Source: a virus (taxonomy: Duplodnaviria > Heunggongvirae > Uroviricota > Caudoviricetes). Taken from it: a stretch of 64,000 bases of DNA. Every line of letters begins with the position of its first letter. Within the stretch, counting starts at the first letter, position 1. Position numbers and translations under genes: made by a program. Location of the stretch: the IMG/VR virus record IMGVR_UViG_3300009614_000107, one strand, 5' to 3'. Positions 600-57,866 of this stretch are shown here, piece after piece. The notes under the pieces were generated by a model, which saw only the letters and a program-made list of their open reading frames with translations, had not been told where the DNA came from and made no database searches.

Positions 600-1114
600 T
601 TAAACCACTCCTGTAGATTTTCCTCTTTTGCTTTGCCAACCATTGCTATTCTGTAAACTACATCTGTTGGATTTTTGGGAATAAGTAAACCGTGAATTCT
701 ACACGTGGAGAAGATATTAACTCCATACATCTCTGGTCTAAGCATAAATATATTGTTATTTGGAGTGTGTACAACAATGTATTCTGTATCATCTTTGAGT
801 AGTTTATCTTGGTGTGATTGCCAGAGCCTTGAGTTTCGGCATTGCTTCTCTGTCCAAGTCGGGAACTTCTCCTTCATTTTCTTGGCGTGTGCGCTCAAGT
901 CGAAGGTTCGAATTACAAAATAGTAAGGTGGATCTATTATTGTTGACCATAAAGGAAATTTATCACAGCGTTCACATTGTGGGCATCCATTTGGATTTCC
1001 TTGATATGGTAAGTGACACCACTTTTTGACATATTCACCACCTATGACTCTCTTGAGCATAAGAAGTATGAGGTTGTCGTTCAGGATATTAAAGACTCCA
1101 GGCTCTATAGGCAT
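596..1114 (-). CDS. hypothetical Cys-rich protein with DPPY motif (possible small DNA methyltransferase-like)
   Basis: CPQCERC Zn-binding cluster followed by IIDPPYYF (DPPY = motif IV of N6A/N4C MTases); no motif I seen, so assignment weak. Confidence 0.4.
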   Translation of the reverse strand: MPIEPGVFNILNDNLILLMLKRVIGGEYVKKWCHLPYQGNPNGCPQCERCDKFPLWSTIIDPPYYFVIRTFDLSAHAKKMKEKFPTWTEKQCRNSRLWQSHQDKLLKDDTEYIVVHTPNNNIFMLRPEMYGVNIFSTCRIHGLLIPKNPTDVVYRIAMVGKAKEENLQEWFK

Positions 1115-1456
1115 TTAGATTTCCTTCCAATCATTTGTGTATAATTTTGCACGATACTTACCAACTTTGAAACTTCCAGTGGAAATTGCTATTTGCAAAA
1201 CAAACTGCAAGTCTCTATATATTTCCATCATTCTTGTTTCAACATCATCTGAGTAACCACCATTTTCATCTGGTTCTATTCCAAGTATTCTTCCTATATC
1301 ACCAAACACATATGAGTTACCAAATGGCCGTTTTGGGTCGATTGATGGTGCTCCAAATTCTGTGTCTGTCCAGTCCACATATAGTTCCTTTAGAAGTTTG
1401 ATATGATTTCTTTTGATTTCAAAATATTGATATTTATCGTCCTTAGTTCTTGGCAT
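1115..1456 (-). CDS. hypothetical protein
   Basis: ORF, start overlaps stop of upstream gene. Confidence 0.4.
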   Translation of the reverse strand: MPRTKDDKYQYFEIKRNHIKLLKELYVDWTDTEFGAPSIDPKRPFGNSYVFGDIGRILGIEPDENGGYSDDVETRMMEIYRDLQFVLQIAISTGSFKVGKYRAKLYTNDWKEI

Positions 1457-5692: not shown

Positions 5693-6021
5693 TCTGGTTT
5701 GGTTGTATAACTCTTAGAGGCATCGTGCCTGTGATTCTTGAACTTATTTTCAAGGTTGGTTAGAGTGCCATCCAACTCATTTAGTTCGGTTGCAAACAAT
5801 GGACCAAACCAATCTCGATGAACAAGCCCTAGCCTGTCAGCTATCACACCTCTCAGGACATCGTATCTTACCATATCCTTTATTATTTCACCATCCATAG
5901 TCTTATCAAACTCTTCAAAAAGTTTGAGTGTTGGAAGGTTCCAAACTTGATTGTACACAGTTCGTTCATCTTCATTCATATTTGAAGTGAAGAATGGGAA
6001 CTCATAATCTGGTTTTGACAT
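5686..6021 (-). CDS. hypothetical protein
   Basis: ORF. Confidence 0.45.
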   Translation of the reverse strand: MSKPDYEFPFFTSNMNEDERTVYNQVWNLPTLKLFEEFDKTMDGEIIKDMVRYDVLRGVIADRLGLVHRDWFGPLFATELNELDGTLTNLENKFKNHRHDASKSYTTKPEW

Positions 6022-6092
6022 TTAGATTACCTTGGATTCCGCTTAGGCGGTGACTCCAGTGAATGTAATCAGTCAAATCTTTATAAATATTA

Positions 6093-6374
6093 TTATTTAA
6101 TTTCAAGTTCCTTGATTTTTTGTATAGCATTATCCATCTGTTTGATAGTGAATTCTAAGCGCATTCTGTATCCTGCTGCTTCTAATGGTAGACCACCAGC
6201 CATAAGAGTAAGACCAAATAACCTGTTTTGGGATTTTAGTGGTTTTATGAACTTCTCGTCCAGTTCATTTAGAACGATTTCTTGTTTCTTTACTTGATTT
6301 AGATAATGAACGTATAATGTCTTTGTATTTTCGAGTTGGGTCACGATTAGATCTCTATCTTCCTTAGTAACCAT
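6093..6374 (-). CDS. hypothetical coiled-coil protein
   Basis: ORF flanked by TTTATAAATATT elements at 6080 and 6404. Confidence 0.4.
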   Translation of the reverse strand: MVTKEDRDLIVTQLENTKTLYVHYLNQVKKQEIVLNELDEKFIKPLKSQNRLFGLTLMAGGLPLEAAGYRMRLEFTIKQMDNAIQKIKELEIK

Positions 6375-6403
6375 TGTAGTCTACCTGATAAAGGAACATA
6401 GAA

Positions 6404-6415
6404 TTTATAAATATT
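6404..6415. promoter_or_regulatory. TTTATAAATATT promoter-like element
   Basis: exact 12-mer about 30 nt upstream of minus-strand gene start 6374. Confidence 0.55.
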
Positions 6416-6446
6416 TGGAAATTATATGACATTTCTCTGGAGTAGA

Positions 6447-6788
6447 TTACTTCCGTAAATTGGTGATTTCTTGTGCCTTGCATCTACAGAGTAGACAACG
6501 TGTCATTAGTTCTACTCCATTTTTCTCAACATCAACTTTGCCAGCAATGAGTTTTAGTTTATAGGAATTGGAAATCGGTGTGTTGTGATTCATTCCACGT
6601 GCAAGCATTTCCTTGACTATCTCATCGTGACGTGTGCGGATATGGTGAACTTCAACCAAACCATTTTGGATATATCCTTCAATGCTCTTTCCTTTCTCGA
6701 TGCAACCAACAAACATATGGAGTTCGAGATGTTCACCAAGAAGGTGCTTGTCACACATCATCTGGGGTGGGATCATCCACATTCTCAT
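6447..6788 (-). CDS. denV: pyrimidine-dimer DNA glycosylase (T4 endonuclease V / DenV family)
   Basis: CDKHLLGEHLELHMFVG and GLVEVHHIRTRHDEIVKEMLARGMN align with T4 DenV DQHLMAEYRELPRVFG / [32 protein letters not shown]. Confidence 0.65.
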   Translation of the reverse strand: MRMWMIPPQMMCDKHLLGEHLELHMFVGCIEKGKSIEGYIQNGLVEVHHIRTRHDEIVKEMLARGMNHNTPISNSYKLKLIAGKVDVEKNGVELMTRCLLCRCKAQEITNLRK

Positions 6789-13330: not shown

Positions 13331-15175
13331 TTAGACTGCTTTGGTAGCTGCCTCTTTCTTTCGAAGCATCTGAGCCAGCCAGACATTGAGTAGGTTGCCT
13401 TGGGCTTCTCCACCATTGCCACCTGAAACTAGGATATCAGGTGTGATAGTGATCTTGCCAGAGGCAATCTGCTCGAACACCTTTAGCATTGCAACGTTGT
13501 CCTGACCTAGGACACCCATCTGTGCAGCATATGCTTTAGCTGTACCTACACCTTCCTGTTCATTCTTGTAAGCTGTACCGTCTGCCTGAGCCTTAGTTGC
13601 ATCACGAACACCAGCAGCTTCCATCCTTGCTGCATCTGCACGGTCTGCTGCAATATCGATTGACAGTTTAGCTGAGATAACGTCAGTCTGCTTGTCAGCC
13701 CTTGCCGTTTTCTCTGCTACAGCAATCCTCTGCTCCTGTGCAAGTGCTTCCTGCTGGTACTGTGCCTGTTGCTGGGCAGCTATTTCCTTCTTTGTCTGAG
13801 TTTCTAGTAGTGCCTTGTCAACATCAATGTAAGCAATTAGCAGCCCCTGAACCTCTGTGTGGTACTTCGAGAACTCTTCACGAGCCTTCTCAAGTGCCTG
13901 TTCCTGTAGTTCAGTTCGGCTGTGGACGAACTGCATTGCCTGTTTCTTGCCAGCTTCGTTACGGAAGGAGGAGTCGATCAGTGGGTGAGCAACCTGTTCA
14001 ATCAGGTTCTGTACAGTACCGAACCTTGCAATCACGAAAGGTGCATTGGCTGGAGGTACACGGATGATGAGCCTGACATCTACATCAAGCTGGAACCCAT
14101 CCATTGAAGTTACACGAAGTTGGCTGAACTTGAAGAACTCTGTGATCTTCTGGCTCTGGGAAACGTCCTTTCCCTGAGCTCCAAGTACACGTGTCTCTGC
14201 TGGACCCTCAGTTGATGCCCAATCTATAGTGATAGCGGAAGTAGGTACTAACTCAGGCTTGTAGGCGATTTGGTTAAGGTTGTACTTTCCAGGTGTAACT
14301 GGCTCGGCCAGAATACCACGCTGGTTCTTGTCAGTGATTAGAAGAGACTCAACTGTCTCTGGAATTGGGGAATTGAGATCAGGTGTCTTGCTGATTTTTG
14401 GTGCTTCACCACTAGGCTGGACTTCCTTTCCAACACTGGAAATGATTACAGCAACGTAGCCTGGTGGGACAACAGCAACATCATAGAGAGTGACTTGGAA
14501 TAGGTTAGTATTTATGTAGTAATCACCTGGCTGAAGTGTCTCAAGTTGTGGACCCCTGTAGCCACCAGCCTCAATGAAGGCTTGGCTGTCTTGGAAGTGC
14601 TTGTGATCTGATGTGGGTGCTGGAGCAATTATGAAACCAGATGGCAGTGAATTGCCATCCATAGCAACAACTACACCGACCCTCTCCTGTGGAACTTGTA
14701 CTGCACCAACTGCTGTGACTTTGAATACAGCTAGGTTGATACGATAAACACCTGGGCGAAGTACACCAATCTGAGGACCCTTCTTTCCACCATTCTTGAG
14801 GAATGCCCCTGCATCTTGGTACGAATTACATTCAACCTCATCTGCAAGGATACGACCAGATGGAATGGATTGTCCGTCAATGGACTCAACTAGACCAATA
14901 TTTCCCTGTGGAATCTCGGTCACTTCGACCTTCTTAATCTTCCAGATTATGGGGAAACGCCAGTAAAGTCCAGGCATAAGGGTTTCAGCTTGAATACCGA
15001 CCTCACCCTCAGTAGCAATGATTTTTCCCTGTGGTAATTTCTTGCCAAACATTTTCTTAACTAGGATACCGACCTCACCAGCTTTGATGAGAGCGAATCC
15101 TGGTAGCACGAAGAAAACTAAGCATATTAGTACGACAATGCCTAGAATCCCTAGTCCGATTAGATCTTCAAACAT
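13331..15175 (-). CDS. flotillin / SPFH (band-7) family membrane protein
   Basis: N-terminal TM; internal duplicated SPFH-like segments; Ala/Glu/Gln coiled-coil region; C-terminal ITITPDILVSGGNGGEAQGNLL typical of bacterial flotillin/YqiK; GC content visibly higher than flanks. Confidence 0.6.
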   Translation of the reverse strand: MFEDLIGLGILGIVVLICLVFFVLPGFALIKAGEVGILVKKMFGKKLPQGKIIATEGEVGIQAETLMPGLYWRFPIIWKIKKVEVTEIPQGNIGLVESIDGQSIPSGRILADEVECNSYQDAGAFLKNGGKKGPQIGVLRPGVYRINLAVFKVTAVGAVQVPQERVGVVVAMDGNSLPSGFIIAPAPTSDHKHFQDSQAFIEAGGYRGPQLETLQPGDYYINTNLFQVTLYDVAVVPPGYVAVIISSVGKEVQPSGEAPKISKTPDLNSPIPETVESLLITDKNQRGILAEPVTPGKYNLNQIAYKPELVPTSAITIDWASTEGPAETRVLGAQGKDVSQSQKITEFFKFSQLRVTSMDGFQLDVDVRLIIRVPPANAPFVIARFGTVQNLIEQVAHPLIDSSFRNEAGKKQAMQFVHSRTELQEQALEKAREEFSKYHTEVQGLLIAYIDVDKALLETQTKKEIAAQQQAQYQQEALAQEQRIAVAEKTARADKQTDVISAKLSIDIAADRADAARMEAAGVRDATKAQADGTAYKNEQEGVGTAKAYAAQMGVLGQDNVAMLKVFEQIASGKITITPDILVSGGNGGEAQGNLLNVWLAQMLRKKEAATKAV

Positions 15176-15235: not shown

Positions 15236-15320
15236 TGGTGGGGTTACAAGGAGTCGAACCCTGACCCTTGGTTTTCCCCTATTTCTGGGGACCAAGATGC
15301 TACCGCTACACCATAACCCC
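15236..15320 (-). tRNA. tRNA with about 11-nt intron in anticodon loop; anticodon CCA (Trp) most likely, CCC (Gly) alternative; CCA end encoded
   Basis: acceptor GGGGTTA/TAACCCC, T-arm CAGGG-TTCGACT-CCTTG, CCCC..GGGG helix flanking anticodon-loop insert. Confidence 0.6.
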
Positions 15321-15368: not shown

Positions 15369-15797
15369 TTAATCCCCACCGCCACCGCCATCTCCCCCAC
15401 CACCGCCATCTCCTCCTCCTGCATCTCCACCACCACCAGCATCAGAACCACCACCACTGCCACCAGAGTCGATTCCACCACCTGAACCACCATTTGATGC
15501 ACTGCCTGAGTCACCTGGACTTGGACCCTCTTCGTCATCTCCATTTGAGGATGTTGATGGATTTGAACTACTTGAACTGCCACCACCGTCATAGAAGAAA
15601 TATGGCATCCAAGGAACCCATCCAGTGTCAGTCGAGTTGTCTTTGCCTGATGTCGGTTTTGGATATGACCTTGATTGCTGGTTAATCATAGCTGTTTTTA
15701 TATTGGAAAGTAAAATAACTGTCAATAACAGTATGACAAACACCATAATTGCTGAAAGGGCTAAAGTTAGCTTTGTTCCCGTTCTCATATCGATCAA
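15369..15797 (-). CDS. Gly/Asp-rich low-complexity protein with N-terminal membrane anchor
   Basis: TM LTLALSAIMVFVILLLTVILL then GGSGGG/GGGGD repeats. Confidence 0.45.
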   Translation of the reverse strand: MIDMRTGTKLTLALSAIMVFVILLLTVILLSNIKTAMINQQSRSYPKPTSGKDNSTDTGWVPWMPYFFYDGGGSSSSSNPSTSSNGDDEEGPSPGDSGSASNGGSGGGIDSGGSGGGSDAGGGGDAGGGDGGGGGDGGGGGD

Positions 15798-15900: not shown

Positions 15901-16671
15901 TTATGGTATCAGTTCTATCTTAGTAACCGTATCATCATATGATGGTGCTTCATAGATAGTTCTGTCCCAATATGGTTGACCAACTTTAACGTGCATTATT
16001 ATATCAGTCTGTGGCTCGATGTAGACAATTCCCCTGTCTGTGGTGTTGAAAGCTACCAAAGCGTGTCCTACACTTGTTGGCATAAAATCACCCATCTCGA
16101 TAGACACAAAGAAACACCGATAACCAGCATTAAACGCATTTCTCTTCACATCTGATGTGAAATCGTGGCAAACATAGCTACCTTCTACATATTCTTTCTC
16201 ATCTGTCTTGTCATTCTGTATGAATGTAAGCATCTGTTGATATGTTGGGTCTTTGATATTAAATCCTGTAGCTTTCCATCCTTTTTGATATCCTACTGTA
16301 TAGCCTGTTTTTTCACCCAAGCCATAGCCAGTTGTATTTCCGACTTTGTAACCGTTGGTGTATCCAGTGGCAATACCAGCCGTGTTACCAGTATTGTATC
16401 CAGCTAGATCACCCACATTGTAGCCTCTACCATACCCAACGGAATCACCAGCCGTATATCCTGTATTATACCCATCCTTTGTTCCATTTGAATAACCAGA
16501 GGTATATCCAACTGGATAACCTGATTTGTATCCAGCAATCTGTCCCTCAGTATATCCAGCAATATGTCCTTGAGTGTTTCCAAAGTAAAAACCAAAAAAG
16601 GTTCCACCAAGGATCATTGCTGTCATTCCCACAATTACTATTGTACTTGTCTTTTGGTTCATTTCATTCAC
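15901..16671 (-). CDS. GY-hexapeptide-repeat protein with N-terminal TM and C-terminal globular domain
   Basis: about 17 tandem x-G-Y-x-x-G units. Confidence 0.5.
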   Translation of the reverse strand: MNEMNQKTSTIVIVGMTAMILGGTFFGFYFGNTQGHIAGYTEGQIAGYKSGYPVGYTSGYSNGTKDGYNTGYTAGDSVGYGRGYNVGDLAGYNTGNTAGIATGYTNGYKVGNTTGYGLGEKTGYTVGYQKGWKATGFNIKDPTYQQMLTFIQNDKTDEKEYVEGSYVCHDFTSDVKRNAFNAGYRCFFVSIEMGDFMPTSVGHALVAFNTTDRGIVYIEPQTDIIMHVKVGQPYWDRTIYEAPSYDDTVTKIELIP

Positions 16672-16715: not shown

Positions 16716-16795
16716 TGGCGGGTTCGGAGGGATTTGAACCCCCGACAAGTGGATTAAAAGTCCACTGCGCTAAGACCTGACTGCGCCACGAACCC
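16716..16795 (-). tRNA. tRNA-Lys (anticodon UUU), CCA encoded
   Basis: GGGTTCG...GGACTTTTAATCCAC...GGTTCAAATCC...CGAACCCGCCA. Confidence 0.8.
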
Positions 16796-16817
16796 AGCAC
16801 TGAATAGTATGACTGAA

Positions 16818-16829
16818 TTTATAAATATT
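16818..16829. promoter_or_regulatory. TTTATAAATATT promoter element for tRNA-Lys(UUU)
   Basis: centred about 28 nt upstream of tRNA 5' end. Confidence 0.6.
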
Positions 16830-16834
16830 GTGAA

Positions 16835-16912
16835 TGGTGGACTCGAAGGGATTTGAACCCCTGACCCTTGGCTTAGAAGGCCAATGCTCTATCCAAGCTG
16901 TGCTACGAGTCC
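16835..16912 (-). tRNA. tRNA-Arg (anticodon UCU), CCA encoded
   Basis: GGACTCG...loop CTTCTAA...GGTTCAAATCC...CGAGTCCACCA. Confidence 0.8.
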
Positions 16913-16914
16913 AA

Positions 16915-16993
16915 TGGTGAGTCTGAGGGGATTTGAACCCCTGAATGGAGGATTAAGGGTCCTCTGCGCTAGACCTTGCTACGCCACAGACTC
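16915..16993 (-). tRNA. tRNA-Lys (anticodon CUU), CCA encoded
   Basis: GAGTCTG...loop CCCTTAA...GGTTCAAATCC...CAGACTCACCA; 2 nt from tRNA-Arg, so co-transcribed. Confidence 0.7.
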
Positions 16994-18682: not shown

Positions 18683-18871
18683 TTATGGACAGATAATACT
18701 TCCTCTAATAAAATTATCATACTTCCTATTTTCCTTGAATTTCTCAATCTTTCTTTCACGTTCTGTAGGTGGAAGAACCTCACAAAAATTCGGGTATTGA
18801 TCCAAATGCCAGTGCCAGACCCATTCCTTATCCGACATTTGTTGACCACAATGCAAACACCTTACCATCAT
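18683..18871 (-). CDS. zinc-ribbon protein
   Basis: CLHCGQQ motif. Confidence 0.4.
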   Translation of the reverse strand: MMVRCLHCGQQMSDKEWVWHWHLDQYPNFCEVLPPTERERKIEKFKENRKYDNFIRGSIICP

Positions 18872-19290
18872 TTAGAATTGTTCACCTCACTGAGTTCTTC
18901 CATCAATGTTACTTTTTTGAGCTGGGTTGGTGGTGTTTGGACATCAATCGTTCCAAGTGTTGAGTCTACATTCCAAACCATAAACTTGAAACCACCAACT
19001 GTGAAATTTTGGGGTAAGTTGTTGTTATAAAATGTTATAATATATCCACCAAGGTGCATTGAATGTGTGAGAGGTGTAGCGGAAAATAAACCACCACCAT
19101 TGTCTGTAAAGCCATTATATGTGTATGGACCAAGTTGATCGCCTGGAATGAGGGTCACTATGTTCTTTGGTTTCAATGGAACTGGTGTTGTGAATACAGA
19201 TGAAATAATACTAATTATTGCTATAGACATAAATAATCCAAAAAATAGTTTTGGTATCATATCGAACATATCTAAGTCAGACACTTTCAT
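18868..19290 (-). CDS. membrane-anchored hypothetical protein
   Basis: N-terminal TM. Confidence 0.4.
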   Translation of the reverse strand: MKVSDLDMFDMIPKLFFGLFMSIAIISIISSVFTTPVPLKPKNIVTLIPGDQLGPYTYNGFTDNGGGLFSATPLTHSMHLGGYIITFYNNNLPQNFTVGGFKFMVWNVDSTLGTIDVQTPPTQLKKVTLMEELSEVNNSK

Positions 19291-19296
19291 TTCACC

Positions 19297-20142
19297 TTAT
19301 TCATCATCGTCTTGAGGATTAGAACGTGGTCTACCTCTCGGTCTTGTTGGTGGTAATGGTTGTGGCTTACTACGAACAAATGCACCTATTGAAAATGCCA
19401 TTGACATAACACAAAACCCAATAATTGTATAGAATTCCCATTCTGGTGCTATTTCTCCTTGGGGACCCTGAATGCCTTGAGGACCTGTTGCGCCTGTGTC
19501 ACCCTTATCACCCTTTGCACCAGTTGCACCAGTTAATCCCCTATCACCCTGTATTCCTTGTATTCCTTGTAATCCCTGTATGCCTTGTGTTCCGTTAAAT
19601 CCTCTTAATCCTTGAGGACCAACTGGACCAATAAGTTTTGCTTTTATAGTTGAGTTCAATTTATCAAACCAGTCTGGTGGTGGAATGAAATTTGTGATTG
19701 TAAATGATTTTGCAATTGTTACTTTACTTCCATCCATTCCTTCAACAATAATTTTTATTGTGTGCAGACCAAGATTAGAGTAGGGTGTTTGATTAGGTAC
19801 TAAAATAAATGTGTCCCAAGTTACTAAAATATTTGCTCCAGCAGTACTGTATAATGGTTCAGATTTAATAATCTCAGAAAAATCATCATAATATACATAT
19901 AAATATGAAGAAACTGGACAAGTTGTGTGATCAGCTTCTGGATTAACTTCAATATGTATATTTATTTTTGTATTAACATCACCAGATTCTGGTGATATTA
20001 TTACAGATAAATTATTTATTGGGACATCTGCTTTTATTAATTTAGGTGTAGAGATTACAAAACATATTAAAAAAATCATTAAGATAAATTTGTGTTTGAA
20101 CATTTTATAATTTCTCACCACAGTGTTTGCAAAACTGAGCAT
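19297..20142 (-). CDS. collagen-like triple-helix-repeat protein with signal peptide and C-terminal TM
   Basis: about 25 uninterrupted G-X-Y triplets (GPVGPQGLRGFNGTQGIQGLQGIQGIQGDRGLTGATGAKGDKGDTGATGPQGIQGPQG); C-terminal TM + RPRGRPR tail. Confidence 0.6.
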   Translation of the reverse strand: MLSFANTVVRNYKMFKHKFILMIFLICFVISTPKLIKADVPINNLSVIISPESGDVNTKINIHIEVNPEADHTTCPVSSYLYVYYDDFSEIIKSEPLYSTAGANILVTWDTFILVPNQTPYSNLGLHTIKIIVEGMDGSKVTIAKSFTITNFIPPPDWFDKLNSTIKAKLIGPVGPQGLRGFNGTQGIQGLQGIQGIQGDRGLTGATGAKGDKGDTGATGPQGIQGPQGEIAPEWEFYTIIGFCVMSMAFSIGAFVRSKPQPLPPTRPRGRPRSNPQDDDE

Positions 20143-20395
20143 CTTCAGAATTAAGTGTTTTGCATTTTTGGCATTTGATTTTTATACGTATTTTTTGGTC
20201 AGAATTAACTTCTTGTTTCATAATAATTTGCTGGTGTTGACTGGATGTGATTAAACCAGCAAAAAGTATTATTCCACCCAAAAACATTGCTGGAACACCT
20301 ATAAGTGCTCCTATAATTGTAAGTGAAATTAGCCATCCTAAAAAACCAATTATAAGCCCAATGATTATTAATCCAAGACGCAAGTTGATTACCAT
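20105..20395 (-). CDS. membrane protein with C-terminal double zinc ribbon
   Basis: start trimmed to MVINLRL to avoid overlap with tRNA-Ile; CQKCKTLNSEDAQFCKHCGEKL. Confidence 0.4.
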   Translation of the reverse strand: MVINLRLGLIIIGLIIGFLGWLISLTIIGALIGVPAMFLGGIILFAGLITSSQHQQIIMKQEVNSDQKIRIKIKCQKCKTLNSEDAQFCKHCGEKL

Positions 20396-20433: not shown

Positions 20434-20510
20434 TGGTGGCGAAGAGCAGACTTGAACTGCTGATGCCCTGATTATCAGTCAGGTGGACTACCAAGCTGTC
20501 CTACTTCGCC
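20434..20510 (-). tRNA. tRNA-Ile (anticodon GAU), CCA encoded
   Basis: GGCGAAG...loop CTGATAA...GTTCAAGTC...CTTCGCCACCA. Confidence 0.8.
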
Positions 20511-20515
20511 AAGAA

Positions 20516-20596
20516 TGGTAGAGAGGATGGGATTCGAACCCACATAAAGGCAAGGATTATGAGTCCTCCGAGATAACCAGGTTCCTCTACCTCTCT
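20516..20596 (-). tRNA. tRNA-Met-like (anticodon CAU; A1:U72), CCA encoded
   Basis: AGAGAGG...loop CTCATAA...GGTTCGAATCC...CCTCTCTACCA; 5 nt from tRNA-Ile. Confidence 0.65.
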
Positions 20597-22588: not shown

Positions 22589-22664
22589 TGGAGCCCCAGG
22601 CAGGACTCGGACCTGCGACCATCAACTTACAAGGTTGACGCACTACCAACTATGCTACAGGGGC
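22589..22664 (-). tRNA. tRNA-Thr (anticodon UGU), CCA encoded
   Basis: GCCCCTG...loop CTTGTAA...GGTCCGAGTCC...CTGGGGCTCCA (one U-U mismatch in acceptor stem). Confidence 0.7.
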
Positions 22665-23208: not shown

Positions 23209-25005
23209 TCACCTAATAGCTTCCTTAAACCACTTCGGGAAGAATCCTATATTCTGGTTGAATAAGTCTGAGAACTTCCCATCAATTATGAAAGTCTCAC
23301 CCCAATCGTCAACACTTCTACAGACTCTACCATAAGTCTGGATTAGGAGCATTGCGGTTGTCCAGTTGTACCAGGATTGATCCTTTTCGACCCTCTTCTT
23401 AATCTGAGGATCACCGAGAGATGGATAGGGTACTTTAACTAGGACTTGCCATCTAGCCAAATCATCTTTTAGGTCGATGCCCATTTTCATACTCGGTGTT
23501 GTCATAATGCAAGGTGCTTTTGCTTGGAAGAATCTCTCGAAAGTATCTTCACGCCTCTCATCTGTGTCAATAAAGTTTCCTCTCTCATCTCTAAGAGAAA
23601 CATTGGTCATCATATACTGCTTGTATTTTGAATTAGCCATAATATATCTTGCAATTTCGTTATTGTGAGTGTGTATTACACCTTTGTGCTGCAAACGAGT
23701 TGGAATGATATCGTTGTCAATTATTCTAAGCATATTCGGTAGGAACTGATCCATTTCTTTGAAAATCGCTCTTCCAGCAAATTTTTGGTAGAGTGGACGA
23801 TGTTCGACTGGGAATGTTGAGTTGCCTATTCTGAAAAACTTAACCTCTTCTTCTATGCCTAAGTATTTCTGTAATTTTTCTTTGTCAAGTATTGTGGCCG
23901 ATATAAGAATGTGTTTGTCAGTGTGCTTGAAAAGCTGGTCAGAATATTTATTAATTGTAACTGGTTTGAAAGTGGCAGATGTTTTGTCTTTTAAGACAAC
24001 CCAGTTATCAATATCATCTTCTAGACTATCTAGCAACTCTGTGATTCTATTTGTTATATTTTCAACTGTTTTACGACTCTTCAGTTCTTGTACACGATTT
24101 GAACTATCACCTATATCCCTTTGGATTGAGGCGAAAGTTCCATACTTTTCTGAGATCCCTTTAAGTTCACCCTGGATATTCTGCAACCATTTTTCCCAAT
24201 CTTCCATTTTTGTGTATTCTGGTATTATTGGAAATGGCATATCTTTAAAATACATCCAAATACCATTAAATGTTCTCGAAGAAATTAAAACTTCAATATA
24301 GGTCATTAAAGTATTTTCGATTGTGTGTGCCTCATCAAAGATTCCTAAAAATCTTTTATTGAAGCTGTGTGCGTGATTTTGTTCGTGAAGGTAATAGGAA
24401 TAGTTGTGGATGGTAAGAGGTGAATGGATTGCCTTGTCCTTGGCTTGCCAGTAGGCACAGAGTGGATAAGAACAATTGCTCCAATCGAACTTAACTCCAA
24501 ACTTGTCACGATCTGCTCTCGGTGACGCATTATCATCTTCAAAATTTTCTGGGTCAATTTCAGCACCCATCTCCATATCGGTTAGTGCAGACTCACGTTT
24601 TACTTGGTTTGCCTTGTGGGGGCATTTGTAACCATTAATCAGGGTACACGGTGCTCTGTCTGCATAGAGTGTGTTCCCTATTCTCTCAGCCCAAAACTCT
24701 GGTTCCATATCTCCTGCTGTGAGAGAGCAGGGATAATTGCCCCTACCTTTGATTAGTGCTATGTCTGGAAAATCACGTAGATACTGTCCCTGTAGGTAGA
24801 TGTCGTTTACAACAAAGTGTGTAAGGTTGCCATATTCCTGATAGACATACTTAGCGATTGCATAGGCTACAGGTGACTTACCAAAGCCTGTAGGTGCTTC
24901 TAGGAAGATGTAATTGTAGGGATCAAGGTTGGCTTCTATAAGACTTAGGATTTCCTTCTGGTATGGACGGAATTCCTTGAATGGGAAACAGGCTTCAATT
25001 GCCAA
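23209..25005 (-). CDS. SF2 DEAH-box DNA helicase
   Basis: Walker A APTGFGKSPV, DEAH box IFDEAHTIEN, helicase C-terminal region. Confidence 0.65.
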   Translation of the reverse strand: MAIEACFPFKEFRPYQKEILSLIEANLDPYNYIFLEAPTGFGKSPVAYAIAKYVYQEYGNLTHFVVNDIYLQGQYLRDFPDIALIKGRGNYPCSLTAGDMEPEFWAERIGNTLYADRAPCTLINGYKCPHKANQVKRESALTDMEMGAEIDPENFEDDNASPRADRDKFGVKFDWSNCSYPLCAYWQAKDKAIHSPLTIHNYSYYLHEQNHAHSFNKRFLGIFDEAHTIENTLMTYIEVLISSRTFNGIWMYFKDMPFPIIPEYTKMEDWEKWLQNIQGELKGISEKYGTFASIQRDIGDSSNRVQELKSRKTVENITNRITELLDSLEDDIDNWVVLKDKTSATFKPVTINKYSDQLFKHTDKHILISATILDKEKLQKYLGIEEEVKFFRIGNSTFPVEHRPLYQKFAGRAIFKEMDQFLPNMLRIIDNDIIPTRLQHKGVIHTHNNEIARYIMANSKYKQYMMTNVSLRDERGNFIDTDERREDTFERFFQAKAPCIMTTPSMKMGIDLKDDLARWQVLVKVPYPSLGDPQIKKRVEKDQSWYNWTTAMLLIQTYGRVCRSVDDWGETFIIDGKFSDLFNQNIGFFPKWFKEAIR

Positions 25006-25948
25006 CGTCTATACCACCGAGTTGATATTTTCTTACGTGATTACGAATTGAAACCTCTGTCACGCCACAGGTTGTTGCTATAACCTTCTGGGAGATGTTA
25101 AGTTCCATCTTCTTGGATGCCAGATAAATTGCACAAGCTGCTACACAGAGTGGACTTGAGCCACTTGTGATTTTTAAGTCCTCTGCCTCTCTGCAAATCT
25201 TTAGGGCTAACATTTCAAATTCACCAGATAGGTTTAACTTAGAGGTGAACTGGGAAATAAAGATTGCAGGATCCCTGCGAGTTGGCTTGATCTTCATTGA
25301 TTCTACCATAAGGCGATAGCAACGAGCAATATCCTTCTTGTCGATGCCTGTGACCTCTTCAATATTCTCCATTGTTGTTGGAATGCCATTCTCTCTGAGG
25401 CTGTAGTACATACAGGCAACTAGGATTTGCTGGATTGAACGTCCTCTAATGAGGTTTATGGCCACCGATTTTGTAAATATATCAAAGATATCGTCATCTA
25501 TTGCATCTGGTATGCTGAGTCTGTATTTGTAGGTTGTATAAAGTGACCTTGCAGAGGATAGTGTTCTGGTTAGAGATGCCTTATCACCTGTTGCCCTATT
25601 GTTCATTCTTGAAAGACGAAGATATTCTATCTTCTTTTCTCCTGTAAGTTTCTTGTTTTGACCATCTAAATTTGACCAAGGAGCAATCCTTGTATGGCTT
25701 GAAGAGCCATTAACGACACCTGGATTTGTGATTGGCGTAGCCCTGTCAAGTTGCTGTGGCTCACCATCAAAGTTTCGCCATTCCTTGTCTCTGGAAATTA
25801 CTTGTTCCTCAAGAACAACCAACCCACAGTTTTTGCAAACAACCTCACCAGTAACATTATCGTGATAGAAGTCACGACTGCCACAAATTGGGCAGTTTAA
25901 TGGAGCATCTTGTGGGGCTTCGTGGGACGGGTCATTAGACATAAACAT
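24995..25948 (-). CDS. tfb: transcription factor B (TFIIB homolog)
   Basis: N-terminal Zn ribbon CPICGSRDFYHDNVTGEVVCKNCG; cyclin-fold core; start trimmed to MFMSNDP about 20 nt downstream of TATA at 25968. Confidence 0.8.
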   Translation of the reverse strand: MFMSNDPSHEAPQDAPLNCPICGSRDFYHDNVTGEVVCKNCGLVVLEEQVISRDKEWRNFDGEPQQLDRATPITNPGVVNGSSSHTRIAPWSNLDGQNKKLTGEKKIEYLRLSRMNNRATGDKASLTRTLSSARSLYTTYKYRLSIPDAIDDDIFDIFTKSVAINLIRGRSIQQILVACMYYSLRENGIPTTMENIEEVTGIDKKDIARCYRLMVESMKIKPTRRDPAIFISQFTSKLNLSGEFEMLALKICREAEDLKITSGSSPLCVAACAIYLASKKMELNISQKVIATTCGVTEVSIRNHVRKYQLGGIDVGN

Positions 25949-25967
25949 CACTCCTATTGTACCTACA

Positions 25968-25979
25968 TTTATAAATATT
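25968..25979. promoter_or_regulatory. TTTATAAATATT promoter element for tfb (near-leaderless)
   Basis: between PolB stop (25989) and tfb start. Confidence 0.55.
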
Positions 25980-25988
25980 ATGAGATTT

Positions 25989-28325
25989 TTATCCAAACCA
26001 CTCATTTAGGTTTGCGAAACCTTCAACATTTTCCCAACCTATTCCAACTGCCTCTAGGATCCTCTCTAATGGGGAACGCACGGTTCTTTCAATTACCCAA
26101 TCATAATCTATTTCTATACCCTTTCCGACTAGGCTTTGCTTGTCTAGATATGAACACCAATTTGTTTGTTCCCAAGAACCGTTGTTAATCCTTTTTACTC
26201 TAAAGTACTTTACAAGATCACCTGGAACGATTTCTTCTTTAAGGAATTTATTTGACCAAATTGCACCGTCATAATATTCACCACCAGCATCCTGTTTAAG
26301 GAAGTTCTTTGAGAGGTTGACGGGGATAACTATCTGGTCGATATCGTATGTTCCACCTCTGATATCAGCCATCAACTTACCCAACTTTGCAACAAACTCC
26401 TGTGCTTGTCCGTGCAGAACCATCTCGATACACTCTTTTTGCAGTTTGCGTGTTACCTCAGATGTGTTTCCACGGATGTAGTCGAAACCCTTGATGAGGA
26501 TGTAGTCGCAGGATCGACCATCTTCTCTAATAATACGCTGTGCATATCTCTTCTTAGCACCTGTCTCTTTGCCCTTTTTCTTAATGAAAAGGCTTTCAGA
26601 GGCATACCTATCCTCTTTGATTTTGAATTTGGCTGTCTCGGCTATGCCATTTTCCTCTGCCCACTTCAGTAACTCATCGTTCATTGCAGCTTCGAGTTCT
26701 GGTACACGTTCCATTGGGGCATCGATGAATATGGAATCTGTATCACCGTAGATGACCTTGAAACCCATAGATTCTGCTCTCTTCTGGAGTCTGTGTAAAC
26801 CATCTCCAGCAGTTTTGAGAACGAAGTCTGCCTTTGCCTTTGAGAAGATACGACTGCCCTTGAATGCAAAGTATCCCCAAGCACCTGAGAGGAAAGCCTT
26901 AACCTTATCTCGTGTGTCCTTTACAACCTTGTACTGTGCAGAACCAGGCTCATATTTCAGAAGTTCCTTGTCCCACACTTCACGTTCACTTAATAAATCA
27001 TTGATAACTGCTGGACCCAACTTGCCCCAGATATCTGGAGAAGTTTCCATAGGATAACTTCTGAGGATACTTGGGTAGTATCTGCTCATATCCAGCACGA
27101 CTAAGTTTGGATAAATCTTTGGCGGTGGAGTGAACACTACACCACCATACTCTAAGTCCTCTTCACTCTGCTCCTCTGGAGAGGATGGTAGAACCATTCC
27201 AAGTCCGTGTGCTTTTCTAAGCCAGAAGCAGTCGTGACGCTTAATGTGTTCGAGTGTGTAGTTTATGTCGTGAAGCCCTACAAAGTTCTTCTCTCCCCAG
27301 AAGGACTGTATGAAGCGGTATTCCTTCCACTCACCAGTGTTGACATCCTTGAAGCCTCTGTCGAGCTTGACACAGTAGTCAACGTCCATCTTATTGTATA
27401 GAATGAACTCATCTCTCTTTGTAGGGTCAAGGTATGTATCGATTCTGAAGAATTCGGACACCATATCCTCTTGTTTGATTATCCCTTCCCTGATAACAAC
27501 TTCCTTTAGTCTGTTACCTAGGTTTGGTCTAGTCTTTGTGTAGGCATTATGTAGGTCGAAGATTTCTGTTCCAGCCCAATCAACCTTGAGATTGAACTGT
27601 TTCTTAGCCCAAGCATCAAAGTACTCGGTATCAAATCTGATATTCCAGCCTGTAACTATATCTGGCTTGAGGTAGTCAAAATACTTCTGGATATAATCAA
27701 TTAGAGCAACGTAAGAAGCAACGTGAACAACTTTCCAGTTCTCCTCTCTTTGCTCAACCTGTGTGGCCAAGAACCGATCATCAACAACAAACGTGATATA
27801 TTGCTCACTTTTGTTGTCCCAGAAGGTGACACAGATAATTGGCTGAGTTGGGTTGTTCTTGTTTGGGAATCTGATGCCCTGAGCCTTTGTCTCAATGTCC
27901 ATATAGACAACTAGAGGCTGGAGAACAACATTGGCTGGTTTTATGGTGTCAAATGGAATGATTGAAGAGTTCCCATCATAGTAGAATGAGGATTTGACAC
28001 CTGTGTCAATCAGCATACGTTCTACAAATTCAATATCTGCTTCCCAATGCTTTGAGAAATTGTCTCTGTGGTTACTTACTTCAAGTGGATTTTGAACAAC
28101 TATTTTTACTAACTTTTCACCGTCTTTTGAAATGAACCCAGGCTCAATGCGTTTAATCCAAGGTGCATTCTCTGGAATTGATTCACCATCGTGGACGTAC
28201 ATATAAGGGTCGAACTTGGAGATTCTGAACATTCTCTTCTCTCCAGTGTTCGAGCGACAGTAAATATTAATGAAGCCTGTCTCTCCATCGTAATGACCTT
28301 TAACGTACTGCCAGACAGTGGACAT
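25989..28325 (-). CDS. polB: family B DNA polymerase with 3'-5' exonuclease domain
   Basis: Exo I MDIET, Exo II WNIRFDTEYF, Exo III YNKMDVDY, Pol A LDMSRYYPS, Pol C VIYGDTDSIFI. Confidence 0.9.
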   Translation of the reverse strand: MSTVWQYVKGHYDGETGFINIYCRSNTGEKRMFRISKFDPYMYVHDGESIPENAPWIKRIEPGFISKDGEKLVKIVVQNPLEVSNHRDNFSKHWEADIEFVERMLIDTGVKSSFYYDGNSSIIPFDTIKPANVVLQPLVVYMDIETKAQGIRFPNKNNPTQPIICVTFWDNKSEQYITFVVDDRFLATQVEQREENWKVVHVASYVALIDYIQKYFDYLKPDIVTGWNIRFDTEYFDAWAKKQFNLKVDWAGTEIFDLHNAYTKTRPNLGNRLKEVVIREGIIKQEDMVSEFFRIDTYLDPTKRDEFILYNKMDVDYCVKLDRGFKDVNTGEWKEYRFIQSFWGEKNFVGLHDINYTLEHIKRHDCFWLRKAHGLGMVLPSSPEEQSEEDLEYGGVVFTPPPKIYPNLVVLDMSRYYPSILRSYPMETSPDIWGKLGPAVINDLLSEREVWDKELLKYEPGSAQYKVVKDTRDKVKAFLSGAWGYFAFKGSRIFSKAKADFVLKTAGDGLHRLQKRAESMGFKVIYGDTDSIFIDAPMERVPELEAAMNDELLKWAEENGIAETAKFKIKEDRYASESLFIKKKGKETGAKKRYAQRIIREDGRSCDYILIKGFDYIRGNTSEVTRKLQKECIEMVLHGQAQEFVAKLGKLMADIRGGTYDIDQIVIPVNLSKNFLKQDAGGEYYDGAIWSNKFLKEEIVPGDLVKYFRVKRINNGSWEQTNWCSYLDKQSLVGKGIEIDYDWVIERTVRSPLERILEAVGIGWENVEGFANLNEWFG

Positions 28326-29469: not shown

Positions 29470-30027
29470 TTATCCTCCAATAGTAAACAACCCAATATCA
29501 TTGAAATTTATCTTTGCATATTTACCAAACAATTCAATGGCTTTACTATCATAGGCTCTAGCTGCATCTTCTTCTGTATTAAATGTGCCTAAATATATTA
29601 TTGTTCCATCTTTCACTATACGACTATACCATTTATTATTGTTTTTACTCACACCTTTATATTTGCTTAAACACATTTTTCTATTTCGTGTTTTCTGCTT
29701 TCTACTATTAAATTTATTTTGCTGGTTTGAAACTATTCTTAAATTACACTTACGATTATCAAGACCATCACCATTAATATGATCGATTTGCTCATTTGAA
29801 TTTACATTTAAAATTAATCTATGTATTGAATTTCCTTTGTTGCCAACTCTTCCAGATTCTGCATACCAGATACCATCTCTTTTATTGGCATACCAAGTAT
29901 GATTTTTTACATTATCATAATCTTCTGAATCTATAATAGCAGATTTATTTTGAGTTAATGAAATTATACAAATTTTACTTAATTTATCTTCAATTATTTT
30001 ATTATGTTTTCTGCTACCAAATTTCAT
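29470..30027 (-). CDS. HNH-AP2 homing endonuclease
   Basis: HNH IDHINGDGLDNRKCNLRIVSNQQN plus AP2 domain YKGVSKNNNKWYSRIVKDGTIIYLGTFNTEEDAARAYD; extremely AT-rich. Confidence 0.75.
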   Translation of the reverse strand: MKFGSRKHNKIIEDKLSKICIISLTQNKSAIIDSEDYDNVKNHTWYANKRDGIWYAESGRVGNKGNSIHRLILNVNSNEQIDHINGDGLDNRKCNLRIVSNQQNKFNSRKQKTRNRKMCLSKYKGVSKNNNKWYSRIVKDGTIIYLGTFNTEEDAARAYDSKAIELFGKYAKINFNDIGLFTIGG

Positions 30028-40870: not shown

Positions 40871-43147
40871 ATGTGTGTAACGAGCGCATTGTCTAGTAAA
40901 TATCTCCACTTACTAGTTATACTTATAATTTTAATACCGATGATACCAAAGGCAAACGCAAGTTTATCCAAACCATATATTGATGGTATGACAATTGAAA
41001 ATATTAATGGAGAACCATTGAATCTATATGGGGTGAATATACGTGACAACTACCAAGAAAAGGACATTAAATGGCTATCAGATAATGGGTATAATGCAAT
41101 AAGAGTCACAATTCTATGGCAAACAATCGAGCCAACAGAAGGTGTACTGGATTGGAGTGGGTTAGACAACACAGTACAATGGGCTGAAAAATATCACATT
41201 TATGTACAGTTAGATTTTCACCAGTGGCAATATAGTAATTATTTTCATTGGGACAGTATGGGAACAGGTTGTGGATTTCCAGCTTGGATTGTTAGTGCTG
41301 GAGGATACACAAACGATGAGGCTGGACAGCAAGCCTTCTCAGATGATTTTTTCCTCAAACGTGGTTATGGTGCAGTAGTCTGGGATAAATATGAAAACTT
41401 CATATTGCAAATTGTCACCAGATATAAAGATTATCAAAATGTGTGGGCATATGAACCAATTAATGAACCAATGGTTGGTTCACCACATATTGATGATGCA
41501 AGAGTTGCCTGTAATGCTAGATATACAGAATTGATACAGGCAATCAGAGCAATCGACCCTGAAACGATAATTGTGTTACATTATATTGATTCTGGTTTCA
41601 ATCAAAAACAGGATTTTCCAAACATTGCCTGGACAAAGAGTGCATATAGTGAATATGGTGTTGGAACAACAAAATCTCAGATTGATAAATATCTAACAAA
41701 CCGTGAAGCAGAGTTCAATATTGTAATGGATGTTCCTTGGATAATTAGTGAAACTGGGTCGATGCCAGCTATGAAAGATTCGGCTGAGTATTTCCTAACA
41801 ACATTATTGACTGACTACAAATCAATGTTAAACAATGGTCAATCTGTTTGGTATATCTGGGATTATGGATATGGTATAACTGGTGGTTATGTAAGCCCAA
41901 GAAATGCAGACGGCAGTGATAGTTGGATACAGCCAATACTAGCTAATATTATTAATTCAATTACTCCACCAAAAACAATAACACAAGTAGACACATCATC
42001 TTGGACAGGATTTGCAATGTCTGTCGAGAATCGTGAAAACTTGGATATGTGGACTTCTGCTTTAGACAAAGGCTCAAAATGGGGATTTACTGTAATTCGT
42101 GTACCATTTCTATTTCCAATAGACTATGCTAATATGGATCAGATACTTGCCCTTATTGACCAGCACGGTGCAAAGGCAATTTTAGATTTCCATTGTTTGG
42201 TTCAATATCCAGCAGCAAATAAGATTGGCACTGTTGGATTCATATCAGATTGGGTGGAAGTAGTCAACCATTATAAGAATGACACTAGAGTTCTTGGCTG
42301 GGAAATTGCCAATGAACCTGATCCAACACAATGGGATACATCAATAGTTACTTCTTATGATCATATCAAAGCATTAACAGATGTTGTTGATGCTATCAGA
42401 GCAATCGATCCAAGTAGAGTGATCATTTGGCCACCATCTTCTTTTTGGGGAGATACTAACATCCCACAAGGACTTATACGGGATAATATTGTTCTTTCAA
42501 CACATCCATATAGTTACGGTGATAAGAGTACTTGGGCAGAATTAAAAGTAATAGCAGACTACAGAATATCACAAATTGCAAAATATGAAAACCAATTTAG
42601 TGGTGTTTGGGTTGGTGAAATTGAATGCCATCCAGGTGGAGCAACTAATCCAGAATTGGAAAAACAATATGTTGTCTATATGTTGAGTTGGTCACTCAGT
42701 AATGGACACGGATTTAATTATTGGAAATATGGAAATACATATGATGATGGTGGACAAAATCCAGATGAAATCATTAGTTTAGCATATGCAGATTCTGGAA
42801 TATCATTACCCGTCACAACAACTGCCATATCAACAGTTTCTATGATAACAACGACTGTAGAAGAAACATATACAAAAGAGCCAATTGTTACTTCCAAAAT
42901 ATCACAAAGAAATAATTTGAATCAGAATAATCAAAATAATGCCCCTGTAGATTCTCCACCTGTAGATCCACCATTAGATACTAGTATTGGTGCTATGGGA
43001 CAGATTATAGAATTTGTGATTATTGCATTTGGAATATCATTTTTGATAGCAATAGTCAATGGTGGAACAATAGAAGGAAGAAGTTTGATTGGAATGGTAA
43101 TTGGACTTACAATAGTTATGTTTATCTTAGTTTTGATAAATAAATAA
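40871..43147 (+). CDS. secreted tandem glycoside hydrolase family 5 protein with C-terminal membrane anchor
   Basis: signal peptide; two GH5 domains with catalytic NEP motifs (YEPINEP, WEIANEP); Thr-rich linker, NQ tract, C-terminal TM. Confidence 0.7.
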   Translation: MCVTSALSSKYLHLLVILIILIPMIPKANASLSKPYIDGMTIENINGEPLNLYGVNIRDNYQEKDIKWLSDNGYNAIRVTILWQTIEPTEGVLDWSGLDNTVQWAEKYHIYVQLDFHQWQYSNYFHWDSMGTGCGFPAWIVSAGGYTNDEAGQQAFSDDFFLKRGYGAVVWDKYENFILQIVTRYKDYQNVWAYEPINEPMVGSPHIDDARVACNARYTELIQAIRAIDPETIIVLHYIDSGFNQKQDFPNIAWTKSAYSEYGVGTTKSQIDKYLTNREAEFNIVMDVPWIISETGSMPAMKDSAEYFLTTLLTDYKSMLNNGQSVWYIWDYGYGITGGYVSPRNADGSDSWIQPILANIINSITPPKTITQVDTSSWTGFAMSVENRENLDMWTSALDKGSKWGFTVIRVPFLFPIDYANMDQILALIDQHGAKAILDFHCLVQYPAANKIGTVGFISDWVEVVNHYKNDTRVLGWEIANEPDPTQWDTSIVTSYDHIKALTDVVDAIRAIDPSRVIIWPPSSFWGDTNIPQGLIRDNIVLSTHPYSYGDKSTWAELKVIADYRISQIAKYENQFSGVWVGEIECHPGGATNPELEKQYVVYMLSWSLSNGHGFNYWKYGNTYDDGGQNPDEIISLAYADSGISLPVTTTAISTVSMITTTVEETYTKEPIVTSKISQRNNLNQNNQNNAPVDSPPVDPPLDTSIGAMGQIIEFVIIAFGISFLIAIVNGGTIEGRSLIGMVIGLTIVMFILVLINK

Positions 43148-44326: not shown

Positions 44327-44500
44327 TTGGGCAAGAAAAGAAAGGCTGAGAACAATTATACAACTGTGCGTGTCAGTAAAGATTTTGTTGATAAGGTTGC
44401 CAAGCTCAGAATCACAGAATCTTTTGAGGATACGCTTAGAAGGATTCTTAACTGGGAACCTCTAAAAAAACAGTCCTCTGAGGTATCCGATAGCAAGTGA
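44327..44500 (+). CDS. possible ribbon-helix-helix (CopG/Arc-like) small regulator (57 aa, TTG start)
   Basis: NNYTTVRVSKDFVDKVAKLRITESFEDTLRRIL beta-alpha-alpha pattern; AATATTTA(A)TA-like element 25-35 nt upstream; overlaps 3' end of convergent GT2 gene by 39 nt. Confidence 0.3.
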   Translation: MGKKRKAENNYTTVRVSKDFVDKVAKLRITESFEDTLRRILNWEPLKKQSSEVSDSK

Positions 44501-45397
44501 TAATTGCATTATTGTAAATGCAACGGTTTCTTCTGGTAGCAACTCTAGAATAAGAATGTATGATGAAATTCCTATTATTCCTAGTGCTGGGAACATATAG
44601 AAGATAATTGGAGCAAGAATTAACAGTAAAATTAAAGCAATCGAAGGTATTGCCCTAGATAACTTGAAGATATGCTTGACTCTGAGTAGTCTACCCCAGC
44701 TCCAACCATACCCATTCATTTGTTTTTGGAATGCCTTGTATGTCACTCTTTCCTTGTGAACAACTGGAACGGCTGGTACACCAAGCAAACAATATCCTGC
44801 ATTTCTGAGTCTATTGTTGAGCTCCCAATCCTCACATCCACCAATTTCCTCTGAGAATCCACCAACTTTTCGGATTGCATCTGCTTTGTAGACAGCATTG
44901 TAGCCAGGAACACTGTTGACATAGACGGTGTTTGTGTACTTCCTAGAATGGTTTGATGCTATTTTCATAACATTGCTTTTTGCTCTGGAAAGACTTGTTG
45001 ATGTGTCTGGTTCACAGCCAGATGTTATGGCTGCAACTGGAATGAATTGTGTGGTTTTTGGGTCAACAACTGGAGATCTATAAATTTCCATTAAGTTCTC
45101 CATTTCTTCAGCCCAAGTCTCTGGGATTACTGTATCACTATCTAGGAACCCAACGAACTCAGATGTTACGTGTCTCAAACCTTCATTACAGGCCACTGCT
45201 CTTTTGCTACCTTTGAAATTTGTTTTTGGCTCTTCTAGGATAGTACAACCAAAGGCTTTTGCTATATCTTTTGTCTCATCTGATGAGTTGGCATCTACGA
45301 TAATGACATGCACTGGATTGGTTTGTTTTGAGAGGGATAATAGACAGGGTTCTAACACAGGAGCACTGTTTCGAGTGGGAATTATAACATCCATCAA
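44462..45397 (-). CDS. glycosyltransferase family 2
   Basis: MMDVIIPTRNSAPVL...IIVDANSSDET GT-A signature; C-terminal TM helices. Confidence 0.75.
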   Translation of the reverse strand: MMDVIIPTRNSAPVLEPCLLSLSKQTNPVHVIIVDANSSDETKDIAKAFGCTILEEPKTNFKGSKRAVACNEGLRHVTSEFVGFLDSDTVIPETWAEEMENLMEIYRSPVVDPKTTQFIPVAAITSGCEPDTSTSLSRAKSNVMKIASNHSRKYTNTVYVNSVPGYNAVYKADAIRKVGGFSEEIGGCEDWELNNRLRNAGYCLLGVPAVPVVHKERVTYKAFQKQMNGYGWSWGRLLRVKHIFKLSRAIPSIALILLLILAPIIFYMFPALGIIGISSYILILELLPEETVAFTIMQLSLAIGYLRGLFF

Positions 45398-52071: not shown

Positions 52072-52073
52072 TT

Positions 52074-54924: not shown

Positions 54925-54925
54925 A

Positions 54926-56266: not shown

Positions 56267-56269
56267 CCA

Positions 56270-57205: not shown

Positions 57206-57292
57206 TTACTTTTTCTCCTTTACTTTTTTAACACCTATCAATCCAGCCCACATCATCTGACCAGAAAACTCCATAACTCCCCACAGCCATCC

Positions 57293-57850: not shown

Positions 57851-57866
57851 AATTTATTTCACCATT

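Follow-up and report, generated by a model that had tools for sequence, protein, structure and literature searches.

What role could a collagen-like protein play on a mobile genetic element of archaeal type? The question is raised by a minus-strand open reading frame (ORF) at positions 19297..20142 of a 64,000-nucleotide stretch of DNA catalogued as viral (IMG/VR record IMGVR_UViG_3300009614_000107), here called the window, which constitutes the last 64 kb of a ~197-kb contig. A preliminary description made from the letters of the window had read this ORF as a membrane-anchored protein with collagen-like G-X-Y repeats, and had tentatively assigned it to a surface or fibre module of a virion or envelope. 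We find that the protein belongs to a previously unannotated family in which a globular head, a collagen stalk and a transmembrane anchor follow one another in a fixed order. The explanation that we favour, with moderate confidence, is that these are type I membrane-anchored, trimeric "lollipop" surface proteins for adhesion or recognition, found mainly on archaeal-type mobile elements or viruses.

Domain order of the window protein

The ORF is real and coding, with the collagen-like tract in its frame, and is present as the preliminary description gave it, with a length of 281 residues. An identical 268-residue product starting at Met14 (nucleotide 20103), designated P0001, is called on 11 public contigs, including NCBI JAFMOA010002524.1 (197,240 bp) and a JGI contig of 197,232 bp; these contigs were retrieved by exact look-up and hence all carry the same protein by construction, and the 90% cluster of P0001 contains start-site variants only, so that no variation in triplet number is visible among them. 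Because Met14 lies one base past the stop codon of the upstream gene, it is the likely true start. Residue numbers below are those of the 281-residue ORF unless they are given explicitly for P0001.

Hydropathy analysis and AlphaFold2 modelling, together with family alignments, delineate the domain order of the protein (Table 1). The signal peptide, beta-rich N-terminal domain, C-terminal transmembrane helix and Arg/Pro tail that had been read from the sequence are all recovered. Hydropathy exceeds 1.6 over residues 12-40, with a hydrophobic segment at residues 18-38 following MFKHK, and AlphaFold2 places a helix at P0001 residues 3-18. The head is modelled as a nine-stranded immunoglobulin (Ig)-like beta-sandwich of ~110 residues, with a predicted local distance difference test score (pLDDT) mostly >90, and resembles adhesion-type Ig/FnIII/PKD domains. 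At the opposite end, the transmembrane helix begins five residues past the last triplet and is followed by a Pro/Arg-rich tail that is unusually long for the family, most family tails being basic and 5-15 residues in length. That this long tail contacts an internal partner is speculation.

The stalk consists of exactly 20 triplets, fewer than the ~25 originally reported. The perfect register of 20 Gly residues rules out chance, and the collagen-like character of the tract is borne out by the Pfam Collagen model (PF01391), which matches residues 172-230 with E = 6.2e-10 and 39.1 bits against a cut-off of 27.2. Its richness in Gln, Ile and Thr is as had been described (Q9, T4, R2 and K2 at Y positions; P4, I4, L3, D3 and A3 at X positions). 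A collagen triple helix rises by 0.286 nm per residue, so that the 60 residues of the tract would form a stalk of ~17 nm if triple-helical. The underlying DNA contains only a weak 9-bp repeat (4.9 copies, 19550-19593) under the GIQ/GLQ triplets, and the 64-kb window contains no further G-X-Y run and no further family member.

The family, its stalks and its genomic contexts

A homology search with the full-length protein returned 4894 hits and was swamped by collagen repeats, the true full-length relatives being P0032, P0041 and P0077. Word-indexed searches with alignments of the head yielded 2 and 4 proteins, and an exhaustive profile search with the head domain was used instead, which identified 1496 proteins at E <= 1e-3. 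Among the best 150 of these 1496 matches, 62 are proteins of 195-368 residues that are matched end to end, while another group comprises giant proteins with PKD repeats, to which only the C-terminal half of the profile aligns. P0001 matches profile positions 1-127 with E = 9.7e-42, and an hmmsearch of the window proteins retrieved this ORF alone (E = 2.4e-38).

The architecture of the window protein recurs in at least 60 sequence clusters. G-X-Y tracts of 5-27 triplets (median 18) are carried by 62 of the 64 short family proteins examined, and in these 62 a signal peptide, a head, a junction and the triplets are followed by a transmembrane helix 0-10 residues past the last triplet and by a short basic tail. 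The N-terminal start with a signal peptide is common to all family members. The junction follows the consensus IPPxEWWxDLPxEF(I/L)xxIt and runs into the stalk as GPxG, and the stretch before the transmembrane helix often reads G[KE][DS][AY]P. The window protein combines a full-length match to the head profile with the junction, here in a diverged variant (DWFDKLNSTI), the stalk, a transmembrane helix within 10 residues of it and a basic tail; it is thus a member of the family, whose head corresponds to no Pfam family. Two other members, P0202 (locus L014, 4643-5749) and P0158, have an extra polytopic membrane region fused at the C-terminus, which in P0202 is bordered by two CxxC pairs. The P0202 extension was considered as a relative of the zinc-ribbon membrane protein encoded upstream of the window gene and rejected, as the two show no similarity (E = 1.0).

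Two lines of evidence bear on the nature of the stalk. Gly is invariant at every third position of 1184 triplets in 66 family sequences, with X and Y positions varying (X: P 28%, E 17%, D 10%; Y: Q 31%, T 12%, K 12%), and this strict retention of Gly amid varying neighbours argues for a triple-helix packing constraint. The triplet composition is that of hydroxyproline-free bacterial collagens. Furthermore, P0225 and P0242 share the head and transmembrane helix of the family, with the collagen tract replaced by 11-12 perfect heptads (LxxxYxx) whose Fourier maximum lies exactly at 3.5 residues; the AlphaFold2 model of P0242 has this sandwich too, and after it an alpha-helix continuous with the transmembrane segment. 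This replacement indicates that the stalk is an exchangeable oligomerising spacer and not a mere linker, and is the strongest evidence for such a function of the G-X-Y tract. From these patterns we infer that the stalk forms a triple helix and that the protein trimerises.

In its genomic surroundings, the family appears mainly on mobile elements: nine of the ten loci whose flanks are readable over several kb look like such elements. Judged by its genes, the window is part of an archaeal-type mobile element or virus: it encodes TFB, a family-B DNA polymerase (PolB), RFC-like clamp loaders, XPD-like and UvrD-like helicases, a PD-(D/E)XK nuclease, a DUF3987 protein, an HNH-AP2 endonuclease, an SPFH protein and seven tRNAs. 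The matches of PolB (24% identity, to haloarchaeal tailed-virus polymerases) and TFB (29-35%) to haloarchaeal sequences in phage and plasmid collections are all remote, and the correlation of tetranucleotide usage with that of a Bathyarchaeia contig (r = 0.80) is not discriminating. Syntenic genes, with 27-60% amino acid identity, link the window element to loci L007, L011 and L014, each of which carries a family member at a different position. L013 has four weaker homologues in common with the window, and its family gene lies inside a glycosylation cluster. Small ORFs strung together with integrases, ParB and a DnaA-like protein make up L056-L058; L008 has a similar build and no marker genes. 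On several short JGI contigs, the family gene again has GT2, GHMP-kinase or ERCC4 homologues from these elements as neighbours. The only clearly cellular context is L009, with urocanase, histidine ammonia-lyase and a DNA ligase 90% identical to that of a Bathyarchaeia metagenome-assembled genome. The GC content of the loci ranges from 29% to 57%, which suggests that the hosts are probably diverse. A subgroup search of IMG/VR returned no match, and none of 185,579 GTDB species genomes was found to contain the subgroup that holds the chromosomal member.

Glycosylation genes lie at most 3 kb from the family gene in seven loci (L007, L013, L014, L037, L048, L049 and L051), and this proximity makes glycosylation by element-encoded enzymes plausible. 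At L013 (8361-10669; 56% GC), a 273-residue member with 27 triplets overlaps by 4 nucleotides a 496-residue GT-C-type glycosyltransferase with weak STT3/PMT_2 matches, an arrangement that suggests that the glycosyltransferase and its substrate are translated together. In the integrase-bearing element L058, a family member and a second collagen-repeat gene lie ~4.4 kb apart (660-1304, minus strand; 5705-6481, plus strand).

In the architecture that we propose, a Sec-type signal peptide would direct the synthesis of a type I single-pass membrane protein whose ectodomain is the Ig-like head on its stalk. Three chains would wind their 20 triplets each into one rigid collagen triple helix of ~17 nm, running almost directly into three C-terminal transmembrane helices with short basic tails in the cytoplasm, so that three heads would be displayed at a fixed distance from the membrane. 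The protein would be inserted into the host cytoplasmic membrane, and then possibly into any envelope derived from it, and would act as an adhesion or recognition spike. It is on the basis of the architecture, together with the mobile-element context, that we infer this role; the membrane topology and the binding of a ligand are predicted.

Known systems and competing explanations

The predicted layout matches those of the streptococcal collagen-like proteins Scl1 and Scl2 and of the Sulfolobales S-layer anchor SlaB, and the protein is a member of neither group. With Scl1/SclA and Scl2/SclB it shares a signal peptide, an N-terminal globular head, a variable G-X-Y stalk, a C-terminal hydrophobic anchor and a basic tail; streptococcal Scl stalks are likewise hydroxyproline-free, vary in triplet number and have a "lollipop" layout. 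Unlike them, it is archaeal and borne on a mobile element, lacks LPXTG and has an Ig-like head in place of the helical V domain. The Scl models NF038330 (38.1 bits, cut-off 400) and NF038329 (40.4 bits, cut-off 325) match residues 172-230 only. The best NCBIfam match is the Legionella Lcl model NF046116, with 48.9 bits against a cut-off of 500 and again on the repeat alone, and the NCBIfam scan at E <= 1 returned collagen adhesin models only, with no archaeosortase signal (PGF-CTERM, PEF-CTERM and similar). Lcl and the Bacillus exosporium protein BclA are trimeric prokaryotic proteins with collagen stalks projecting a globular head, at a distance set by the triplet number. BclA, however, has a C-terminal C1q-like head and an N-terminal anchor, Lcl is secreted, and neither has a transmembrane anchor continuous with the helix. 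Such a direct junction of a collagen helix and a single-pass membrane anchor exists, with terminal domains on display, in the animal membrane collagens XIII, XVII, XXIII and XXV and in the scavenger receptors MARCO and SR-A; these animal proteins are type II, with an N-terminal anchor, and rely on hydroxyproline, whereas the window protein, with its signal peptide and C-terminal anchor, would be type I.

Several observations weigh against the adhesion or recognition spike proposed here. The head fits generic Ig-like folds only, and no ligand can be named from it. N-glycosylation sequons are not enriched in the family heads (52 observed, 45.6 expected), and the comparison of seven loci revealed no conserved gene up to 3 kb from a family member, leaving the protein with no conserved partner. 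AlphaFold2 assigns the G-X-Y tract of the monomer a low-confidence pLDDT of 48-74, and Pro occupies 4 of 20 X and 0 of 20 Y positions, which makes the thermal stability of the stalk uncertain. The member on a cellular Bathyarchaeia contig makes a purely cellular role possible for some members. As to the viral part of the proposal, no capsid, portal or terminase gene was detected in the window, in the 7 kb beyond it or in related loci, and a search with the PolB of the element found no relative in IMG/VR.

These last points also bear on an envelope spike, the explanation preferred in the preliminary description and a special case of ours. In this case the trimer would be taken from the host membrane into the envelope of a large enveloped or membrane-containing archaeal virus, with Ig-like heads that bind the host surface and Pro/Arg-rich tails that contact an internal matrix or nucleoprotein. 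We consider this doubtful, as no known archaeal virion protein of any other kind was detected in the 64 kb or the 7 kb beyond, some members belong to small elements with integrases and one to a chromosome, and we know of no enveloped archaeal virus of ~200 kb. The original reading is supported as regards the surface protein, with a virion role unproven. It is rather unlikely that the ~197-kb element represents a large virus of archaea, perhaps of Bathyarchaeia, with a lipid envelope that bears collagen-stalked trimeric spikes glycosylated by the element's own heptose-type cluster. Were it so, interchangeable collagen or coiled-coil spikes would form a family across archaeal viruses, and the protein would be, to our knowledge, the first collagen-based viral membrane glycoprotein. 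A soluble fibre on the virion or tail of a tailed archaeal virus, the analogy originally drawn and the classic role of collagen repeats in phages, we regard as highly improbable. Matches to 45 PHROG families, mostly annotated as tail fibre, reach E = 5.5e-18, but nearly all lie within residues 168-236 and cover only the G-X-Y tract, and the similarity to phage collagen-like tail fibre and minor tail proteins (phrog_819, phrog_5073, phrog_1806) is limited to ~59 repeat residues. The phage proteins are soluble components of the virion and have neither a signal peptide nor a transmembrane segment; the window protein has both, carries its head N-terminally and, with 268 residues, lacks N-terminal baseplate-attachment and C-terminal receptor-binding modules. 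A tblastn search of 50,697 phage genomes gave no match. The repeat-only matches, signal peptide and membrane anchor largely refute this explanation.

Two further explanations retain the membrane anchor. The trimer could be a strut that anchors or spaces an S-layer or another canopy, with collagen in place of the coiled coil of SlaB, and the copy on the element would then remodel or replace the strut of the host. SlaB, an archaeal protein, has the same order of parts, with a signal peptide, N-terminal Ig-like beta-sandwiches, a trimeric coiled coil and a C-terminal transmembrane helix (PMC10903991). This likeness in the order of parts is closer still for the coiled-coil variants P0225 and P0242; stalk lengths of ~12-17 nm would suit the archaeal pseudo-periplasm, and one member is chromosomal in Bathyarchaeia. 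SlaB nevertheless has two or three head domains against one here, an alpha-helical stalk where all members except those two variants have collagen, and the place of a core chromosomal gene beside slaA. No SlaA-like or other large S-layer gene adjoins any member in the loci examined, Pfam and NCBIfam scans revealed no similarity to known S-layer families, the stalk varies from 5 to 27 triplets, and the absence of the chromosomal member's subgroup from the GTDB genomes is a misfit with a core envelope component. On balance, a strut of this kind appears improbable. Slightly less probable again is that the tract is a flexible low-complexity spacer which forms no triple helix, in a monomeric tethered Ig-domain protein. 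The low Pro content of the window member (4 of 60 tract residues), the low model confidence over its tract and the several members with interrupted tracts or only 5-7 triplets would fit such a spacer, but the invariant Gly register would not, and the tract is swapped for a canonical heptad coiled coil, not for a random linker.

Collagen repeats had been described as rare in archaea, in agreement with a 2015 count of Pfam collagen sequences, 14 of them archaeal and 2,554 bacterial (PMC4565658), and searches of the accessible literature found no such collagen protein described for archaea, archaeal mobile elements or viruses. Within the known class of prokaryotic collagen-like surface proteins, what is notable here is the setting on archaeal mobile elements, a collagen tract fused directly to a transmembrane helix and the natural interchange of stalks in a compact, widespread and unannotated family. 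The exchange of collagen for alpha-helical coiled coil is a natural experiment on equivalent trimerising spacers, and the head domain could be registered as a new Pfam family. If displayed on virions or infected cells, these proteins would be candidate factors in host recognition or surface remodelling by elements of uncultured archaea from sediments and soils, and their short hydroxyproline-free stalks may interest collagen engineers.

The gene, its neighbours and the rest of the element

The features of the gene and the two genes that flank it are compiled in Table 1. Neither flanking gene is kept beside other family members in the seven loci compared.

Table 1. Features of the collagen-stalked gene and its immediate neighbours, in window positions.
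Feature	Positions	Strand	Basis or remarks
Coding sequence, collagen-stalked membrane protein	19297..20103	minus	268 aa from Met14; mechanical ORF reaches 20142 (281 aa)
Signal peptide, aa 14-38	20029..20103	minus	MFKHK + FILMIFLICFVIS + TPKLIKA; putative cleavage site
Ig-like (possibly PKD-related) beta-sandwich head, aa 39-151	19690..20028	minus	No Pfam family
Conserved head-stalk junction, aa 152-171, FIPPPDWFDKLNSTIKAKLI	19630..19689	minus	Family alignments; short helix at P0001 residues 151-158 (AlphaFold2)
Collagen-like stalk, 20 uninterrupted G-X-Y triplets, aa 172-231	19450..19629	minus	Regular-expression count; Pfam PF01391
Cap or linker APEWE, five residues between stalk and membrane	19435..19449	minus	Family C-terminal comparison
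C-terminal transmembrane helix, aa 237-257	19372..19434	minus	Hydropathy 1.7-1.9; AlphaFold2 helix at P0001 residues 221-244
Predicted cytoplasmic tail, RSKPQPLPPTRPRGRPRSNPQDDDE	19300..19371	minus	Sequence; stop codon 19297-19299
Upstream neighbour, 96 aa, two transmembrane segments and C-terminal zinc ribbon	20105..20395	minus	1-nt spacing; gene call; Pfam Zn_ribbon_3 E = 5e-7
Downstream neighbour, 138 aa, N-terminal transmembrane segment, no family	18868..19284	minus	12-nt spacing

The Gly-rich and GY-repeat proteins (15369-15797 and 15901-16671, minus strand) with which the collagen-like protein had been grouped into one module are 2.6-4 kb distant and could be assigned to no family, and, with no gene conserved near the family members, the grouping is not upheld. 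Both proteins open with a transmembrane segment; one has a Ser/Gly/Asp-rich tail, and the other has ~20 repeats of the G-Y-x-x-G type followed by a globular C-terminal part. Their Yae1_N and FliH matches are repeat-driven and below cut-offs.

Elsewhere in the window, the TFIIB/TFB homologue (24995-26005) lies between PolB and the XPD-like helicase in a replication operon with overlapping gene ends (23209-28325, minus strand), so that the element brings its own transcription initiation factor. The replication genes are adjoined by the HNH endonuclease with an AP2-like domain (29470-30027, minus strand; phrog_99, E = 5.7e-34). The seven tRNAs (Trp, Lys-UUU, Arg-UCU, Lys-CUU, Ile, Met and Thr), all on the minus strand, are scattered among genes at 15236-15320, 16716-16993, 20434-20596 and 22589-22664; several are 79-85 nucleotides in length and may have introns or long arms.

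A glycan-biosynthesis cluster of ~20 kb occupies positions 44462-63492 of the minus strand. It encodes three GT2 glycosyltransferases, an epimerase, a B12-radical SAM protein, a hexapeptide transferase, WbqC, PIG-L and methyltransferases, together with a transaldolase/FSA (TAL), a DSPc phosphatase, a SIS-domain protein and a GHMP kinase, a set that suggests the synthesis of an activated heptose. The gene order of the cluster is kept at 41-60% amino acid identity in related elements (L007, 2648-10842; L014, 6380-10152; L059). The product of one of the few plus-strand genes (40871-43147) has 758 residues, with a GH42-like stretch at the N-terminus and a GH5 cellulase domain (E = 4.8e-38), and is unusual as cargo of an archaeal element. 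The SPFH/Band-7 protein (13331-15175, minus strand) has 614 residues, with an N-terminal transmembrane segment and a long Gln/Ala-rich C-terminal region, and a truncated-looking radical SAM protein of 188 residues is encoded at 1456-2022 on the minus strand, near the contig end.
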